IMG/VR virus record: IMGVR_UViG_2778261392_000002
Reading direction: 5' to 3' (one strand)
Source: a virus
Lineage: Duplodnaviria > Heunggongvirae > Uroviricota > Caudoviricetes
DNA: 10,810 nt
Shown: in pieces, positions 809 through 9,876 of the stretch
How the letters are laid out: every line of letters begins with the position of its first letter
How positions within the stretch are numbered: the first letter of the stretch is position 1
The notes under the pieces: model-generated
Databases searched by the model: none
Seen by the model: only the letters and a program-made list of their open reading frames with translations
What the model was told of the DNA's origin: nothing
Translations under genes and position numbers: made by a program

Positions 809-1981
809 ATGGCTCAGGATTACCACCACGGAGTGCGCGTTGTTGAAGTCAACGAAGGCACCCGATCCATTACCACGGTGAGCACCGCCATCGTGGGCAT
901 GGTCTGCACGGGCGATGATGCCGATGCAAAAATGTTTCCTCTTAATAAACCCGTGCTGATCACTGATGTGCTGACCGCCAGCGGTAAAGCGGGTGAGTCC
1001 GGCACGCTGGCCCGTTCGCTGGATGCTATCGCTGACCAGGCAAAACCCGTGACCGTTGTTGTGCGTGTGCCGCAGGGTGAAACGGAAGAAGAAACCACAA
1101 CCAATATCATCGGCGCAGTGACCGCCGAGGGTAAAAAAACAGGCATGAAAGCCCTGTTATCTTCCCAGTCACAACTCGGCGTTAAACCGCGCATTCTCGG
1201 CGTGCCAGGCCACGACACCAAGGCGGTAGCTACTGAGTTGCTGAGCGTGGCGCAAAGCCTGCGTGGGTTTGCTTACCTGTCAGCGTATGGCTGCAAGACG
1301 GTACAGGAGGCGATCACTTACCGTGAAAACTTCAGCCAGCGCGAAGGGATGCTGATCTGGCCTGACTTTACTGGCTGGGACACGGTGCTGAATGCCGAAG
1401 CAACGGCATATGCCACCGCCCGTGCGCTCGGTCTGCGCGCCAAAATTGATGAGCAGACCGGGTGGCACAAGAGCCTGTCCAACGTAGGCGTGAACGGTGT
1501 CACCGGAATTTCTGCTGATGTGTTCTGGGATCTGCAGGACCCGGCAACCGATGCAGGTCTGCTGAACCAGAACGACGTCACCACACTTGTGCGTAAAGAC
1601 GGCTTCCGCTTCTGGGGTTCCCGCTGCCTGAGTGATGACCCGCTCTTTGCCTTCGAAAACTACACCCGCACGGCGCAGGTGCTGATGGACACGATGGCAG
1701 AAGCACACATGTGGGCGGTGGATAAACCTCTTAACCCGTCGCTGGCCCGCGACATTATCGAAGGTATCCGCGCCAAAATGCGCAGCCTGGTCAGTCAGGG
1801 CTATCTCATTGGTGGTGATTGCTGGCTGGACGAGTCGGTGAACGACAAAGACACGCTGAAAGCCGGAAAACTCACCATCGACTACGACTACACGCCAGTG
1901 CCGCCACTTGAAAACCTGATGCTGCGTCAGCGCATCACCGATCAGTACCTGGTGAATTTCTCCAGCCAGGTCAGCGCGTAA
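809..1981 (+). CDS. FI: Contractile tail sheath protein (P2 gpFI family)
   Basis: 390-aa ORF; N-terminus [19 protein letters not shown]...AIVGMVCTG and C-terminal [13 protein letters not shown] closely resemble P2 FI as I recall it. AGGAGG at 793-798 precedes the ATG. Confidence 0.93.
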
Positions 1982-1990
1982 GGGGGCAAC

Positions 1991-2506
1991 ATGGCTTTAC
2001 CACGTAAATTAAAACACCTGAACCTGTTTAACGACGGGAACAACTGGCAGGGGATCGTTGAGTCGCTGACGCTGCCGAAATTTACCCGCAAATATGAGAA
2101 GTATCGCGGCGGCGGAATGCCGGGTGCGGTGGATGTGGATCTGGGGCTGGATGACGGCGCACTGGATACAGAATTTTCCATTGGCGGTACTGAGCTGCTG
2201 CTGTTTAAGCAGATGGGCAAAGCTACGGTGGATGGCATCCAGTTGCGCTTTACCGGCTCTATCCAGCGTGACGATACCGGGGAAGTGCAGGCCGTGGAGC
2301 TTGTGGTGCGTGGACGTCACAAAGAAGTAGATTCCGGCGAGTGGAAGACGGGCGAAAGCAACACCACCAAAGTGACCAGTACCAACAGCTACGCGAAGCT
2401 GACCATCAATGGTGAGGTGCTCTATGAAGTGGACCTTATCAACATGGTGGAAATTGTGGACGGTGTGGACCTGATGGAAGCGCACCGTAACGCCCTCGGC
2501 CTCTGA
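1991..2506 (+). CDS. FII: Tail tube protein (P2 gpFII family)
   Basis: 171-aa ORF immediately after FI with a GGGGG RBS at 1982-1986; size and position match P2 FII. Confidence 0.9.
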   Translation: MALPRKLKHLNLFNDGNNWQGIVESLTLPKFTRKYEKYRGGGMPGAVDVDLGLDDGALDTEFSIGGTELLLFKQMGKATVDGIQLRFTGSIQRDDTGEVQAVELVVRGRHKEVDSGEWKTGESNTTKVTSTNSYAKLTINGEVLYEVDLINMVEIVDGVDLMEAHRNALGL

Positions 2507-2517
2507 TGTATCTGAAC

Positions 2518-2535
2518 GGCGCGGAACGCCGCGCC
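2518..2535 (+). other. GC-rich hairpin between FII and E (7-bp stem GGCGCGG / CCGCGCC, loop AACG), not followed by a U-tract
   Basis: Perfect inverted repeat read directly from the sequence, 12 nt after the FII stop and 26 nt before the E start; could be an RNA stability or attenuation element, not a canonical intrinsic terminator. Confidence 0.3.
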
Positions 2536-2560
2536 AGAACCCAATTTACAGGACAGCAAA

Positions 2561-2863
2561 ATGAGCGATAAGCAGACTGAAAAGACCATTCAACTGGATA
2601 CTCCCATCATGCGCGGTAAAACAGAAATTACCGAAATTGTGCTGCGTAAACCGCAGTCCGGTGCGCTGCGCGGCACACGCCTGCAGGCCATTATGGATAT
2701 GGATGTGAACGCGATGATGACCGTGATCCCCCGCATCTCCAGTCCGGCACTGACTGCACAGGAAATTGCAGAGATGGACCCGGCAGATCTCACTGCCATG
2801 TCGGTTGAGGTTGTCACTTTTTTGTTGAAGAAGTCGGTGCTTGCCGGTTTACCGACAGCCTGA
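2561..2863 (+). CDS. E: Tail assembly chaperone gpE (zero-frame product)
   Basis: 100-aa ORF in the P2 position between FII and T; contains the slippery heptamer near its 3' end. Confidence 0.85.
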   Translation: MSDKQTEKTIQLDTPIMRGKTEITEIVLRKPQSGALRGTRLQAIMDMDVNAMMTVIPRISSPALTAQEIAEMDPADLTAMSVEVVTFLLKKSVLAGLPTA

Positions 2864-2997
2864 CGGTTGACGATCTGGTGGCTGATATCGCCACCATCTT
2901 TCACTGGCCGCCATCCGTTACTGACGTTATGCCGCTGACCGAAGTGCTGGAATGGCGGTATAAAGCGATTCAGAGAAGCGGGGCCAGCCATGAGTGA
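2561..2997 (+). CDS. E': Tail assembly chaperone gpE+E', predicted product of a programmed -1 frameshift at T_TTT_TTG (2818-2824)
   Basis: The heptamer T TTT TTG is in the correct phase of the E frame. The -1 frame from 2824 is open to TGA 2995-2997 and reads VEEVGACRFTDSLTVDDLVADIATIFHWPPSVTDVMPLTEVLEWRYKAIQRSGASHE, ending just inside the T start (2990). This is the arrangement described for P2 E/E' and analogous to lambda G/GT. Confidence 0.7.
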
Positions 2998-5900
2998 CAA
3001 TAACCTGCGTCTGCAGGTGATTCTTAATGCGGTTGACAAACTCACCCGCCCATTTCGTGCTGCACAGGCCAGTTCGAAAGAGCTGGCTGGCGCAATCAGA
3101 AACTCCCGTGACGCATTAAAGCAACTCAATCAGGCGGGTAACAGCCTGGAAAAATTTCGCAAGCTGCAGGCCGATAACAAGAAGTTAGGCGACAGGCTGA
3201 ACTATGCCAGACAGAAGGCTAATTTGCTTAGCTCTGAGCTGGAGGCGATGGAGCAACCATCACAACGACACCTTGTGGCTTTAGGTCGGCAAACGCTGGC
3301 AGTCCAACGTCTGGAAGAACAACAAAAATATTTGCAGAAGCAAACGGCGCTTGTGCGTGCAGAACTGTATCGGGCGGGAATTTCTGCGAAAGATGATGCA
3401 GGAGCAACTGCCCGTTTAGCCCGTGAAACATCACGTTATAACCAGGAACTGTCGAAACAGGAGGCGCGGCTGAAGCGACTGGGGGAAGCTCAGCGCAGGA
3501 TGAATGTAGCGCGTGCCAGTTATGCCCGTTCGCTGGAGGTGCGTGATCGTATTGCAGGTGCCGGAGCCACTACCACGGCGGCAGGGCTGGCAATGGGCGC
3601 GCCAGTGATGGCGGCAGTAAAAAGCTATACCAGCATGGAAGATGCCATGAAAGGTGTGGCAAAGCAGGTCAATGGTCTGCGTGACGATAATGGCAACCGC
3701 ACTGCACGTTTTTATGAAATGCAGGATGCCATCAAGGCTGCCAGCGAACAGTTGCCGATGGAAAACGGTGCTGTGGACTTCGCCGCACTGGTTGAAGGTG
3801 GTGCGCGCATGAACGTCGCAAACCCTGATGACAGCTGGGAAGACCAGAAACGTGACCTGCTGGCCTTCGCCAGCACGGCAGCAAAGGCGGCAACAGCCTT
3901 TGAGCTGCCAGCGGATGAACTGTCAGAAAGTCTGGGGAAAATCGCCCAGCTCTACAAAATCCCTACCCGCAATATTGAACAGCTCGGTGATGCGCTGAAC
4001 TTTCTGGATGATAACGCCATGTCGAAAGGGGCGGACATCATTGATGTGATGCAACGTCTGGGCGGTGTGGCTGACCGTCTGGATTATCGTAAAGCGGCGG
4101 CGCTGGGTTCCACCTTCCTGACACTGGGCGCTGCGCCGGAGGTTGCAGCCAGTGCAGCAAACGCGATGGTGCGTGAATTGTCCATTGCCACCATGCAAAG
4201 CAAGAGTTTCTTTGAAGGGATGAATCTGCTGAAACTCAATCCTGAAGTGATTGAAAAGCAGATGACGAAGGATGCGATGGGAACTATCCAGCGTGTGCTG
4301 GAGAAGGTGAACGCACTGCCGCAGGACAAGCGTCTGTCTGCCATGACCATGTTGTTTGGTAAAGAGTTTGGCGATGACGCGGCGAAACTGGCAAACAACC
4401 TGCCGGAACTACAGCGCCAGCTAAAACTGACTGCGGGCAATGATGCGCTCGGTTCCATGCAGAAAGAATCCGACATCAACAAAGACTCACTTTCTGCTCA
4501 GTGGTTGCTGGTCAAAACCGGAGCGCAGAACACCTTCAGCAGCCTGGGCGAAACGCTGCGCCAGCCGCTGATGGATATTCTGTACACGGTGAAAAGCGTC
4601 ACGGGGGCGTTGCGTCGCTGGGTGGAAGCTAACCCGGAACTGACAGGCACACTGATGAAAGCATCGGCTGTTGTAGCTGCGGTGACCGTCGGCCTCGGCA
4701 CCTTAGCGGTGGCGCTGGCTGCAGTGCTGGGGCCGCTGGCAGTGATCCGTCTGGGATTCTCTGTGCTGGGTATCAAAACGTTACCTTCCGTTACGGCAGC
4801 AGTAACTCGAACCAGCAGCGCGTTGTCCTGGCTGGCTGGCGCACCACTGGTACTGCTGCGACGCGGGCTTGCTTCATCGGGCAACGCTGCGGGTTTACTT
4901 ACTGCACCGTTGTCATCTTTGCGCCGCACGGCATCACTGACGGGAAATGTCATGAAAACTGTAGCAGGTGCGCCAGTTGCACTGTTGCGGTCTGGATTAT
5001 CCGGTTTACGTGCTGTTGCTGTGATGTTTATGAATCCACTGGCAGCACTGCGCGGTGGACTGACCGCCGCAGGCGCGGTGCTTCGTGTGCTTGCATCTGG
5101 TCCGCTGGCGATGCTGCGCGTTGCCCTGTATGCCATATCTGGTCTGTTAGGTGCTCTGCTCAGTCCGATAGGTCTTGTGGTTACTGCACTGGCGGGCGTG
5201 GCGCTGGTTGTCTGGAAATACTGGCAACCCATCACCGCATTTCTCGGTGGCGTGGTGGAAGGATTCAAAGCGGCGGCAGGTCCCATCAGTGCTGCATTCG
5301 AACCACTTAAGCCTGTGTTTCAGTGGATTGGCGACAAAGTACAGGCGCTGTGGGGCTGGTTTACTGATCTGCTGACGCCCGTTAAGTCGACCTCTGCCGA
5401 ACTGCAGAGCGCAGCGGCAATGGGGCGGCGATTCGGGGAGGCACTGGCGGAAGGGCTGAATATGGTCATGCATCCGCTGGACTCCCTGAAATCCGGCGTT
5501 TCCTGGTTGCTGGAGAAACTCGGCATTGTCAGTAAAGAGGCCGCAAAGGCAAAACTACCGGAAAGCGTGACGCGTCAGCAACCTGCGACGGTGAATGCAG
5601 ACGGTAAAGTGATGATGCCATCGGGTGGTTTTCCATCATGGGGATATGGCTTTGCGGGGATGTATGACAGCGGCGGCTATATTCCGCGCGGGCAGTTTGG
5701 CATCGTCGGTGAAAACGGGCCGGAAATTGTTAACGGCCCGGCAAATGTGACCAGCCGGAGAAATACAGCTGCACTGGCTGCCGTTGTTGCCGGAATGATG
5801 GGCGTTGCTGCCGCGCCTGCAGAGCTTCCACCGTTGCATCCTTTGGCACTTCCCGCGAAAGGCGGCGAAGCGATGGTGAGTCGTGCAGCCACTGTGCCGC

Positions 5901-6067
5901 CCGTTCACCGGATTGAGGCACCGACGCAGATCATCATTCAGACGCAGCCAGGACAAAGTGCGCAGGATATTGCGCGGGAGGTGGCACGCCAGCTTGATGA
6001 ACGTGAACGCAGGCTGAAGGCAAAAGCCAGGAGTAACTACAGCGATCAGGGGGGATACGACGCATGA
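2990..6067 (+). CDS. T: Tail tape measure protein (P2 gpT family), 1025 aa
   Basis: Very long ORF between the chaperone and gpU; coiled-coil-like N-terminal third, hydrophobic Ala/Leu/Gly-rich repeated middle, Gly-rich C-terminal part; position and composition typical of tape measure proteins. Confidence 0.9.
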   Translation: MSDNNLRLQVILNAVDKLTRPFRAAQASSKELAGAIRNSRDALKQLNQAGNSLEKFRKLQADNKKLGDRLNYARQKANLLSSELEAMEQPSQRHLVALGRQTLAVQRLEEQQKYLQKQTALVRAELYRAGISAKDDAGATARLARETSRYNQELSKQEARLKRLGEAQRRMNVARASYARSLEVRDRIAGAGATTTAAGLAMGAPVMAAVKSYTSMEDAMKGVAKQVNGLRDDNGNRTARFYEMQDAIKAASEQLPMENGAVDFAALVEGGARMNVANPDDSWEDQKRDLLAFASTAAKAATAFELPADELSESLGKIAQLYKIPTRNIEQLGDALNFLDDNAMSKGADIIDVMQRLGGVADRLDYRKAAALGSTFLTLGAAPEVAASAANAMVRELSIATMQSKSFFEGMNLLKLNPEVIEKQMTKDAMGTIQRVLEKVNALPQDKRLSAMTMLFGKEFGDDAAKLANNLPELQRQLKLTAGNDALGSMQKESDINKDSLSAQWLLVKTGAQNTFSSLGETLRQPLMDILYTVKSVTGALRRWVEANPELTGTLMKASAVVAAVTVGLGTLAVALAAVLGPLAVIRLGFSVLGIKTLPSVTAAVTRTSSALSWLAGAPLVLLRRGLASSGNAAGLLTAPLSSLRRTASLTGNVMKTVAGAPVALLRSGLSGLRAVAVMFMNPLAALRGGLTAAGAVLRVLASGPLAMLRVALYAISGLLGALLSPIGLVVTALAGVALVVWKYWQPITAFLGGVVEGFKAAAGPISAAFEPLKPVFQWIGDKVQALWGWFTDLLTPVKSTSAELQSAAAMGRRFGEALAEGLNMVMHPLDSLKSGVSWLLEKLGIVSKEAAKAKLPESVTRQQPATVNADGKVMMPSGGFPSWGYGFAGMYDSGGYIPRGQFGIVGENGPEIVNGPANVTSRRNTAALAAVVAGMMGVAAAPAELPPLHPLALPAKGGEAMVSRAATVPPVHRIEAPTQIIIQTQPGQSAQDIAREVARQLDERERRLKAKARSNYSDQGGYDA
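4830..5165 (+). repeat. About five degenerate tandem coding repeats (~22 aa each) inside the tape measure gene
   Basis: Protein-level repeats: GAPLVLLRRGLASSG / APLSSLRRTASLTG / APVALLRSGLSGLR / PLAALRGGLTAAG / PLAMLRVALYAISG, spaced roughly every 66 nt. Confidence 0.5.
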
Positions 6068-6549: not shown

Positions 6550-7646
6550 ATTTCAGCTCTGAACTGCTTAACAAAGGCAACAAAACTCCCGCATTCAGCA
6601 TCAGTATTGAGGGCAGGGATATCACCACTGTGCTGGATAACCGCCTGATGAGGCTGACGCTGACGGATAACCGGGGCTTTGAAGCGGACCAGCTTGATCT
6701 GGAGCTGGACGACGCCGATGGAAAAATAGCGCTGCCGCGCCGTGGTGCGGTCATTACGCTGGCGCTGGGCTGGAAGGGGCAGCCGCTTTTCCCGAAAGGG
6801 GCATTCACGGTGGACGAGATTGAACACACTGGCGCACCGGACCGCCTGACTATCCGGGCGCGAAGTGCTGATTTTCGGGAAACGCTGAATACCCGCCGTG
6901 AAAAATCGTGGCATAAGACCACCGTCGGGGAAGTGGTGAAGGAAATAGCCTCGCGGCATAAGCTGAAGATGGCACTGGGTAAAGAGCTGTCGGATAAGCC
7001 CGTGGAGCATATAGACCAGACTAATGAGAGTGACGGTAGTTTTCTGATGCGGCTGGCGCGACAGTACGGTGCCATCGCGTCGGTGAAAAATGGCAATCTG
7101 TTATTCATCCGGCAGGGGCAGGGCAAAAGCGCCACTGGTAAACCACTGCCGGTGATCACTATCACACGCAAGGACGGCGACAGTCACCGCTTTACCCTGG
7201 CAGATCGCGGAGCCTACACGGGCGTAATTGCCAGCTGGTTGCATACCCGCGAACCCGCGAAGAAAGAAAGCACCACGGTGAAGCGTAAGCGCAGGACTAA
7301 GAAGCAGAAGAAAGAGCCGGAAGCGAAGCAGGGCGATTACTTGGTGGGTACGGATGAAAACGTGCTGGTACTTAATCGCACCTATGCCAACCGGGGCAAC
7401 GCCGAACGGGCAGCGAAAATGCAGTGGGAACGCCTGCAACGCGGTGTTGCGTCATTCTCGCTACAACTGGCAGAAGGTCGGGCAGATCTCTACACGGAAA
7501 TGCCAGTGAAAGTCAGTGGCTTTAAACAGCCGATAGATGATGCGGAATGGACTATTACCACCCTGACGCATACTGTCAGCCCGGATAACGGTTTTACAAC
7601 CAGTCTGGAACTTGAAGTGAGGATTGATGATTTCGAAATGGAATGA
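6546..7646 (+). CDS. D: Tail protein gpD (P2 family)
   Basis: 366-aa ORF with a GTG start overlapping the U stop (GTGA at 6546-6549); GGGAGGG RBS at 6529-6535; last gene of the FETUD operon before ogr, as in P2. Confidence 0.88.
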   Translation: MNFSSELLNKGNKTPAFSISIEGRDITTVLDNRLMRLTLTDNRGFEADQLDLELDDADGKIALPRRGAVITLALGWKGQPLFPKGAFTVDEIEHTGAPDRLTIRARSADFRETLNTRREKSWHKTTVGEVVKEIASRHKLKMALGKELSDKPVEHIDQTNESDGSFLMRLARQYGAIASVKNGNLLFIRQGQGKSATGKPLPVITITRKDGDSHRFTLADRGAYTGVIASWLHTREPAKKESTTVKRKRRTKKQKKEPEAKQGDYLVGTDENVLVLNRTYANRGNAERAAKMQWERLQRGVASFSLQLAEGRADLYTEMPVKVSGFKQPIDDAEWTITTLTHTVSPDNGFTTSLELEVRIDDFEME

Positions 7647-7736
7647 TTCTTCGCAATGGAGAACTTTTAAGTTTGCAAAATGGAATAATGCGGTATCATT
7701 ATTGTGAATTTAGCAAAAATGGGGAGAACTCGAAAA

Positions 7737-7955
7737 ATGATGATTTGCCCACTGTGTGGAAGTGCCGCCCATACTCGCAGCAGTTTTCAGGTATCTTCAT
7801 TGACCAAAGAGCGTTACAACCAGTGCCAGAATATTAACTGCAGCCATACTTTTGTAACCCATGAAACTTTTGTTCGTTCGATTGCAACGCCAAAAGAGTC
7901 AAATCCGGTTCAGCCGCATCCAATGAAATCAGGACAGGTGGCGCTCTCTCTTTGA
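7737..7955 (+). CDS. ogr: Late gene transcriptional activator Ogr (Ogr/Delta zinc-finger family)
   Basis: 72-aa product from ATG 7737: MMICPLCGSAAHTRSS...KERYNQCQNINCSHTF, with a CxxC...CxxxxC zinc-binding motif and size matching P2 Ogr. GGGGAGAA RBS at 7721-7728. The ORF-track start at 7704 adds 11 residues and is probably not used. Confidence 0.85.
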   Translation: MMICPLCGSAAHTRSSFQVSSLTKERYNQCQNINCSHTFVTHETFVRSIATPKESNPVQPHPMKSGQVALSL

Positions 7956-8041
7956 CGCTGCCGCCAATTTGTCGCCATCATTAAAAAACAGTGCGTCTAA
8001 CATCATGATTTTAAAAGGCATAAATTTCAGGCAACAAAAAA

Positions 8042-8078
8042 CCCATCAACCTTGAACCGAAATGGCGGGGTTGATGGG
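8042..8078 (-). terminator. Candidate intrinsic terminator for ybjL (minus strand): 10-bp stem CCCATCAACC / GGTTGATGGG with a U-tract on the minus strand
   Basis: Perfect 10-bp inverted repeat (8042-8051 and 8069-8078) preceded on the plus strand by the A-run 8036-8041, i.e. followed by UUUUUUGUU on the minus strand; about 113 nt downstream of the ybjL stop. The 17-nt loop is long for a canonical terminator. Confidence 0.4.
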
Positions 8079-8190
8079 CTCCACAAAATGGGGACATCAA
8101 AGAAAAGCAGTGGCACTAATTAAGACTGATGCCCTGCGGAAAAGTTCTGCGGTTGTGCAAAAAAATTTCATTTTCAGGGCAACTTCAGTT

Positions 8191-9876
8191 TTATCCTAAT
8201 CCTGGCCATACCATGACGATGATTGTCCCTGCCAGCGTCAGCAGGACGTTGGCGATTGCGTAGGTGCCCGCATAGCCCAGCGCAGGGATGTTACTGCGAG
8301 CTGTATCACTGATGATCTCCATTGCCGGCGCGCAGGTGCGTGCGCCCATCATTGCGCCGAACAACAGTGCGCGGTTCATTCGCAATACATAAGCACCGAA
8401 CAAGAAACAGATAACCACGGGCACAAGACTGACAATTAATCCGGCAATCAACATCTGACCGCCAATCGCGCCCAGGCCGTTATTAATACCGCTACCGGCG
8501 CTCAGACCAACGCCTGCCATAAACACCATCAAGCCGAACTCTTTCACCATGCTTAATGCACCTTGCGGAATGTAACCGAAGGTCGGGTGGTTAGCACGCA
8601 TAAAGCCCAGCATAATTCCGGCGAATAACAACCCGGCAGCGTTCCCCATGCCGAAACTGAATGTGCTGAACTGGAAGGTGATCATCCCGATCATCAGCCC
8701 AATAACAAAGAAGGCGCAAAATGCCAGCAGGTCAGTGACCTGGCTGTGAATCGAGATAAAGCCGATGCGATCGGCGATGGTTTTTACGCGACGGGCATCA
8801 CCGCTGACTTGTAAAACGTCACCTTTGTTAAGCACGACGTTGTCATCTATCGGCATCTCAATCTGGCTACGAATGACGCGGTTAAGGAAGCAACCGTGAT
8901 CGGTCAACTTCAGTTGTGCGAGACGTTTACCTACAGCGTTATGGTTTTTAACGACCACTTCTTCAGTGACGATACGCATGTCGAGAAGGTCACGATCGAA
9001 AACTTCTTTACCGTTACGGAAGCTGGGATCGAGTCGGGCATGGGCGTCGGGATAGCCTACCAACGCTATTTCATCGCCCATTTGTAGCACGGCATCACCG
9101 TCTGGATTTGCCAGAATCCCGTTACGTCGAATACGTTCAATGTAGCAGCCGGTTTGTCGATAAATACCCAGTTCACGCAGATTTTTGCCGTCGGTCCAGG
9201 CCACCAGCTCCGGGCCGACGCGATAGGCGCGGATCACCGGTAAATAAACCTTACGGTTGGCATCAGTGTCCAGGCCACGTTCGCGGGCGATTTGCTGGGC
9301 GCTGGTCTGTAAGTCCTGATGCTGCAATTTCGGCAAGTAACGCGCACCAACAATCAAACTCACCAGACCGATTAAATAGGTTAAGGCATACCCGAGGCTC
9401 AGATTATCCAGTGCCAGTGAGAGCTGCCTGCTTTCCATGCCGAAATGACGCAGTGTATCGCCAGCACCGACCAGAACCGGTGTCGACGTCATAGAGCCTG
9501 CTAACATACCGGCCGTCAGGCCAATATCCCAGCCAAACAGCTTACCTAACCCTAAGGCGATCACCAGCGCACTGCCAACCATCACCAGTGCTAACATTAG
9601 GTAATTTTTCCCATCGCGAAAAAAAATGGAAAAAAAGTTCGGTCCGGCTTCGACCCCGACGCAGAAAATAAACAGCATAAAGCCAAGATTAAGCGCATCG
9701 GTGTTAATGCTGAAATGTTGTTGGCCTAATAACAGCGATACGACTAAAACGCCAATGGAATTACCCAGTTGGATCGAACCAAGTCGTAACTTTCCGAGAC
9801 ATAGCCCAAGCGCGAGGACCACAAATAATAACAGAATGTAATTCCCATTTAACAATTCGGCGACGTTTATATTCAC
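8191..9876 (-). CDS. ybjL: Putative transporter YbjL (AAE-family membrane protein with central RCK_C/TrkA-C domains)
   Basis: 561-aa minus-strand ORF with hydrophobic N- and C-terminal halves flanking a soluble central region; sequence and length match E. coli YbjL as I recall it. Apparent GTG start at 9876. Confidence 0.92.

Follow-up and report, generated by a model that had tools for sequence, protein, structure and literature searches.

The window (the whole 10,810-nt stretch of DNA analysed here) carries on its plus strand a run of phage late genes, all of them full-length open reading frames (390, 171, 100, 1025, 161, 366 and 72 aa), whose homologues are annotated as sheath, tube, tape measure, gpU and gpD. 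As at the right end of P2-family phages, this block ends with gpD and an Ogr/Delta zinc-finger gene beside the attachment site. The ogr product matches Pfam Ogr_Delta (PF04606) with E=5e-22 and 78 bits; a mechanical reading of the frame begins at GTG 7704, and homologues are annotated from ATG 7737, which gives 72 aa. Upstream of the tail sheath gene, a 203-aa open reading frame on the plus strand (55-666) is probably a Cin/Gin-type invertase for tail-fibre switching, and genomes and phage records that match the window list a "recombinase family protein" or "DNA-invertase" under the match. Past ogr, ybjL reads in the opposite direction, with its stop codon at 8191-8193 on the minus strand. A preliminary description of this DNA had put the two genes about 235 bp apart and called ybjL apparently intact, and both statements hold: the gap is exactly 235 bp (7956-8190), and YbjL differs from its K-12 counterpart by a single substitution (F145S). 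The C-terminal codons, compared between this lysogen-type window and K-12, are unchanged.

Much of the gap is taken up by the gene of the small RNA RybB (Table 1). An Rfam scan of the window returned a single match, RybB (RF00110), at 105.3 bits against a gathering score of 40 (E=2e-21), and the gene is 100% identical to that of K-12. The K-12 RybB transcript, which we take to be GCCACUGC...GGGU6, maps to 8114-8036 of the window. A strong stem-loop noticed earlier at 8042-8078 is present and is followed on the minus strand by a U6 tract (8041-8036); it had been put down as a possibly phage-supplied terminator of ybjL, and is instead RybB's own, identical in prophage-free K-12. Only its last 5 nt and the U-tract fall inside the core shared by phage and chromosome, where the sequence is the same whichever its origin. 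A simple terminator scan of 7600-8400 gave no matches because the RybB loop is longer than the 8-nt limit of that scan. The predicted rybB promoter is composed of a -35 element GAACTT (8147-8142), a 16-nt spacer, a -10 element TCTTA (8125-8121) and a +1 G at 8114; the sigma-E consensus is GGAACTT-N16-TCAAA. When the RybB body was scanned in one genome per species, yielding 92 loci, the AAAAGTTC and TTAAGAC/TTATGAC promoter blocks were found to be kept in these rybB loci across many enterobacterial genera. With a full-model Rfam score, a Rho-independent terminator, a predicted sigma-E-type promoter and a position between rcdA (ybjK) and ybjL, the gene has the features of the RybB family. RefSeq tables carry no rybB feature between rcdA or ogr and ybjL in 2014C-3307 (excerpt 1271-3410), K-12 (2497-2672) or HS (33699-33935), which is probably the reason that the gene is easily missed. 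A scan of the window for tRNA and tmRNA genes found none, and a tRNA-type integration site was rejected on that result.

Table 1. Features at the ogr-rybB-ybjL junction, in window coordinates.
Feature	Position	Strand	Basis or remark
ogr/Delta-type zinc-finger late-gene activator	7737-7955	+	last prophage gene; Pfam PF04606, RefSeq annotation of identical junction
Phage P arm of attP, retained in attR	7956-8032		last phage-specific DNA
Two tandem arm-type integrase sites (predicted), TGCCGCCAATT (7959-7969) and TGTCGCCATCA (7970-7980)	7959-7980	+	186-type consensus match
Possible IHF site AATCATGATGTTA (tentative)	7998-8010	-	one mismatch to WATCAANNNNTTR
Extended common core, 27 bp, ATAAATTTCAGGCAACAAAAAACCCAT	8020-8046		contains motif 1; copy of the native rybB 3' flank
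Exact 14-bp core AACAAAAAACCCAT	8033-8046		common to attB, attL, attR and attP
rybB sRNA gene	8033-8111	-	Rfam RF00110 match, model positions 1-79 of 79
RybB Rho-independent terminator stem-loop	8042-8078	-	-23.3 kcal/mol, z = -3.3; within Rfam match
rybB sigma-E-type promoter (predicted)	8121-8147	-	read from sequence against the sigma-E consensus
Motif 2, AAATTTCATTTTCAGGGCAAC	8163-8183		ybjL-rybB spacer, upstream of the rybB -35 element
ybjL (aspartate:alanine antiporter family), intact, 561 aa	8191-9876	-	K-12 comparison, RefSeq annotation

The limits of the phage DNA were set by a four-way comparison of attB (K-12), attL and attR (lysogens) and the intact attP of the Klebsiella phage KP12. 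Phage-specific DNA ends at 8032, chromosomal DNA runs from 8047 rightwards, and strand exchange must, on these alignments, fall inside the 14 bp between them. Exact identity with prophage-free K-12 begins at 8033 and runs through 8200 with zero differences, so of the 7956-8190 stretch, whose presence beside ybjL in a prophage-free reference would have spoken against a prophage end here, 8033-8190 is indeed found there and 7956-8032 is phage-only. In K-12 attB reads ...GATAACAAAAAACCCAT CAACC...; attL reads ...GATAACAAAAAACCCAT TTATGTAAATGGGTT..., with TTATGTAAATGGGTT on the phage side; and attR, as seen in the window, reads ...GGCAACAAAAAACCCAT CAACC..., the phage DNA before the core being ...TTTCAGGC. 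Read on the minus strand, the core, AUGGG-UUUUUU-GUU, takes in the final 5 nt of the RybB terminator stem and its U6 tract and closes with GUU; the sequence past U6GUU continues with GCC... in the window and with ATC... in K-12. We also considered narrowing the crossover by a C/T variation at 8035 and rejected this as uninformative, T being present in both occupied and empty sites.

These boundaries change two details of the layout as first described. The phage had been said to lie directly against ybjL, whereas some 144 bp of bacterial DNA (8047-8190), made up of the remainder of rybB, its promoter and a spacer, separate the core from that gene. Likewise, rcdA had been placed within a few tens of bp of the ybjL 3' end, whereas the two stop codons in K-12 are 174 bp apart (rcdA 2497 and ybjL 2672 in the excerpt), with rybB in between. 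In K-12 the core begins 17 nt past the rcdA stop and lies 144 nt from the ybjL stop, and neither coding sequence is touched.

Outside K-12-type strains the likeness of phage and chromosome is longer. The 27-bp extended core is identical to the empty sites beside rcdA in E. whittamii and in an E. coli-like contig, and very similar to those in Kluyvera, Citrobacter, Scandinavium and others; in K-12-type E. coli 4 of its positions are different and 14 exact bases remain. The four changes, in K-12 (excerpt 2501-2513) against window 8020-8032, are seen in AAGTTTTAGAT against AAATTTCAGGC, and these do not keep K-12-type strains from being lysogenised: the flank at the attL of 2014C-3307 is of the K-12 type. 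Shigella and another E. coli have an intermediate form, AAATTTTAGAT.

The P arm on the phage side is absent from K-12 and contiguous with the int-proximal arm in free KP12 (excerpt 3057-3133). Its two predicted arm sites match tgccGCCActt, the arm-site consensus for 186-type integrases of P2-like phages (Nilsson & Haggard-Ljungquist 2011, PMC3448106), and the int-proximal arm, in attL and in attP, has the same pair again as a direct repeat, TGCCGCCACTT TGTCGCCAC. For the tentative IHF site, a consensus search of the window gave 9 matches against 7.3 expected, no enrichment over chance; a TAAC-N-TGATT motif recurs at the same position in the P arms of other genera. A tyrosine recombinase stands beside att, outside the window, with Pfam Phage_integrase and Int_N matches in the proteins of the 2014C-3307 prophage and KP12. 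The whole has the make-up of a 186-type attachment site: the core is repeated at both prophage ends and occurs once in the empty site, attP is contiguous, and arm repeats lie on both sides. In E. coli 2c3 (excerpt 5171-6000, corresponding to window 7650-7956), a related prophage at this site has a different ogr allele, and a 120-aa hypothetical open reading frame on the opposite strand, with about 200 bp more, is inserted between ogr and the P-arm repeats as a cargo slot at the attR arm. Despite the different ogr and the added frame, 2c3 keeps the arm from 7956 onward beside rybB, a retention that, judged from the sequence, would fit a functional att module.

The intact attP was observed directly in KP12, a sewage isolate that is not deposited as a prophage, where the equivalent of window 7956-8046 runs straight into the phage side of attL. 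Past the core, KP12 (excerpt 3057-3262) has a hairpin, AACCCGTTTAcaTAAATGGGTT on the int strand, two AACAATAAGTT repeats, the second arm pair and int; its Int is identical to that of the E. coli prophage at 336 of 339 positions. In both KP12 and the Klebsiella phage 4LV2017 (Elveevirus), the attP arms and core are the same as in the E. coli prophages and the integrase is 99% identical, and the late genes of the window are 96.6% identical to those of isolated Klebsiella phages. The GenBank record of 4LV2017 annotates attR as CAGGCAACAAAAAACCCAT, 19 bp that equal window 8028-8046, and an attL of 20 bp, and host rybB follows attR. The attB of K. pneumoniae matches attP over 19-20 bp, in contrast to 14 exact bp in K-12-type E. 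coli. The two groups also differ beside int: in the E. coli prophages about 330 bp, with an 89-aa open reading frame that gave no Pfam match, are inserted between int and the P' arm repeats (2014C-3307 35300-35630; HS 2447-2716), whereas the KP12 int coding sequence runs through these repeats and the C-terminal tail of its Int differs accordingly from that of the E. coli prophages.

Occupied and empty sites are both common in E. coli. A search with 7650-8400 matched 5419 of 5426 complete genomes, and 1109 of the 5426 (about one fifth) contain the whole ogr-rybB-ybjL junction; among the 30 records listed, the match of those that are prophage-free always starts at query position 371 (window 8020). 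As had been proposed, rcdA and ybjL are the neighbours of the prophage, which in 2014C-3307 and HS is complete, measures about 32 kb and has int adjoining rcdA and ogr adjoining ybjL. The predicted direct-repeat core and integrase-flanked far end were likewise found, AACAAAAAACCCAT occurring in both attL and attR of related lysogens that are 97-100% identical across the junction, while the window itself is without attL or int; the best complete-genome match to the whole window is 97.8%. A rearrangement bringing ybjL next to the phage was rejected, as ybjL-ybjM-grxA synteny runs on to the window end and, in lysogens, rcdA borders the far end of the prophage.

Across species, with one genome taken for each, the rcdA-rybB interval is empty in about 20 and holds ogr-type prophage ends in 8; in empty sites rcdA lies 22-75 nt from the core. 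Many other species have 0.4-2.7 kb of DNA in the interval, or lack rcdA in the adjoining 3 kb, and in many cases a phage-like P arm lies by the core; this suggests frequent remnants and other elements at the rybB site. Three contigs labelled Vagococcus sp., Actinoallomurus acaciae and Chryseobacterium sp. have an exact enterobacterial rybB with ybjL-type flanks, the E. coli-like one among them encoding an RcdA with 98.6% identity, and look like assembly contamination.

Taken together, 7956-8046 is very probably the attR of a P2-family prophage (Peduoviridae; Fels-2/186-like regulatory type) integrated into the 3' end of rybB. That the junction is the ogr-proximal end of a P2-like prophage had been recognized from the start, and the Pfam Ogr_Delta match and the comparison with lysogens and KP12 bear this out; as for the target, the 3' ends of ybjL and rcdA had been considered, and the Rfam match at 8033-8111 moves it to the small RNA gene. 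In the mechanism we propose, the tyrosine integrase would join attP to the rybB terminator, which lies in the rcdA-ybjL spacer, by a crossover within the 14 identical bp; attP carries a 27-bp copy of the rybB 3' flank, 14 bp of which are exact in K-12-type E. coli. A small phage hairpin with a U-tract lies downstream of int on the int sense strand of attP, and the 14 bp supply the 3' half of this structure. The core is the tail of the RybB terminator and of the phage hairpin alike, so recombination within it would rebuild two terminators, the RybB stem with an identical tail at attR and the phage hairpin with its tail at attL, by rcdA. Both RNAs would keep their 3' ends, and rcdA and ybjL would be left untouched, a logic like that of phages inserting into tRNA and tmRNA 3' ends (PMC3448106; PMC3603311). 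Folding makes the phage hairpin a weak one (-6.9 to -9 kcal/mol, z about -1.3 to -1.6), and a role for it in terminating int transcription is plausible. We infer that Int binds the arm repeats and that an IHF site is used, and place the exact strand cuts within the core on the same footing.

Whether the element in the source genome is still whole is a separate matter, and it could instead be a decayed, non-inducible remnant whose junction is a fossil. The window covers only the right 8 kb of the element, a tail gene of one close relative is interrupted by an internal stop, and leftover DNA of 0.4-2.7 kb between rcdA and rybB is present in many species, as described above. We nevertheless regard decay as unlikely here, given late genes that are all full-length where visible and match complete prophages and isolated phages at 96-98%, and a P arm whose arm sites are intact.

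Integration at rybB also points the rybB promoter, predicted to be strongly induced by sigma-E, towards ogr, and the shared terminator is all that separates these convergent units; on the plus strand ogr has no U-tract terminator to itself, the hairpin being followed there by CTCCACAAAATGG. It is conceivable, and in our view very doubtful, that read-through of rybB or ogr makes antisense RNA, or that substitutions in attB are selected against lysogenisation. Were this so, envelope stress could restrain the late activator of the phage, or induction of the prophage could restrain RybB, and the four K-12-type substitutions in the 27-bp core would reflect selection on attB to lower lysogenisation.

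Two similar short motifs had been pointed out in the gap, and both occur where they were reported, at 8022-8035 (motif 1) and in the ybjL-rybB spacer (motif 2). It is highly improbable that these AAATTTCA...GGCAAC motifs form a functional pair flanking rybB, whether as repeated integrase core sites, as a second attachment site or as a scar left by an older insertion. In favour of a pair, the pattern has 2 matches in the window against 0.01 expected, and in non-coli Escherichia both copies are native to the chromosome, one on each side of rybB; the significance of that count is overstated, the pattern having been written post hoc, after both copies had been seen. Against a pair, motif 1 is the left part of the 27-bp extended core, thus part of the att common core and wholly accounted for by it, and motif 2 has no counterpart of the AAAAAACCCAT (A6CCCAT) stretch to which strand exchange must be confined. 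Prophage-free K-12 has motif 2 as well, and in the 92-locus comparison it was conserved only in Escherichia; Klebsiella, Kluyvera, Citrobacter and other genera with the same att core, used there by the same phages, lack it. Because it is absent from Klebsiella, a host of the same phages, motif 2 has no evident att role, and we treat its likeness to motif 1 as fortuitous. Finally, it is extremely improbable that the phage entered ybjL or rcdA at its extreme 3' end and supplied the ybjL 3' UTR and the 8042-8078 hairpin. In favour of this, ybjL and rybB are co-oriented with no other terminator-like site between them in the simple scan (loops up to 8 nt), so that the RybB terminator could also stop ybjL read-through, and the stem's final 5 nt, together with the U-tract, may physically derive from the phage. 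Against it, the hairpin belongs to RybB, it and all of 8033-8200 are identical in prophage-free K-12, and the core lies outside both coding sequences.

Integration of a P2-family prophage at the 3' end of rybB, including the attR seen here, is an already described and ordinary arrangement, and nothing in it is new. The gene is integration hotspot #29 of Hochhauser et al. 2023 (PMC10121019). PhiECO1 has been located at 916812-948276 of E. coli HS, with PhiECO2 and PhiECO3 given the same site (Nilsson & Haggard-Ljungquist 2011, PMC3448106); in the HS annotation this interval spans from just after rcdA to just after ogr, beside ybjL, and rybB is mentioned nowhere in the text of that paper. A 2026 paper (PMC12803456) locates prophage NC-MV "between ybjL and rcdA", and a literature search for rybB as attB returned unrelated papers only. 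PhiECO1-type prophages (HS, ATCC 8739, CFT073) have the same locus and gene order, rcdA, int ... ogr, rybB-ybjL, and the same CI/CII/Fil-type switch, and HS and 2014C-3307 share the Ogr protein WP_000972391.1; we found no substantive difference between them and the window, whose tail genes are only about 97-98% identical to those of any complete genome. E. coli W matches the window in two places. An identification of the E. coli W prophage at the rybB site as WPhi was rejected, the 2014C-3307 and HS prophages having the CI/CII/Fil (186/Fels-2) switch and WPhi, by the abstract of PMC1904263, a P2-type C/Cox switch.

Among better-known systems, the closest parallels are the Int/att of coliphage 186 and Fels-2/SopEPhi at ssrA, also P2-family, whose integrase is of the 186 type and whose arm repeats have the tgccGCCActt form, and which likewise insert at the 3' end of a structured RNA and regenerate it from phage sequence (PMC3448106). 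They differ in target, which is a tRNA or tmRNA for the 186/Fels-2 type and the terminator of an Hfq-dependent sRNA for the rybB phages, and the duplicated segment at rybB is short, 14-27 bp against the 50-110 nt shared by attL and attR in the tRNA-inserting PhiESP and PhiKPN (PMC3448106). The ryeB/sdsR (Salmonella) and ryeE (E. coli) hotspots, as cited in Bobay et al. 2013 (PMC3603311), likewise use the hairpin-containing 3' region of a conserved sRNA gene as attB; these loci involve other sRNAs and phage families and varied elements, whereas the rybB site is reported with only one phage type in E. coli.

For annotation, the ogr-ybjL spacer should read attR plus rybB rather than a phage-derived ybjL 3' UTR. 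One attP serves E. coli, Klebsiella and other Enterobacteriaceae, since conservation of the final 14-27 bp of the rybB region extends across genera. The junction is a further clean case of a temperate phage that lands on the terminator belonging to a conserved structured RNA gene and restores that terminator exactly.
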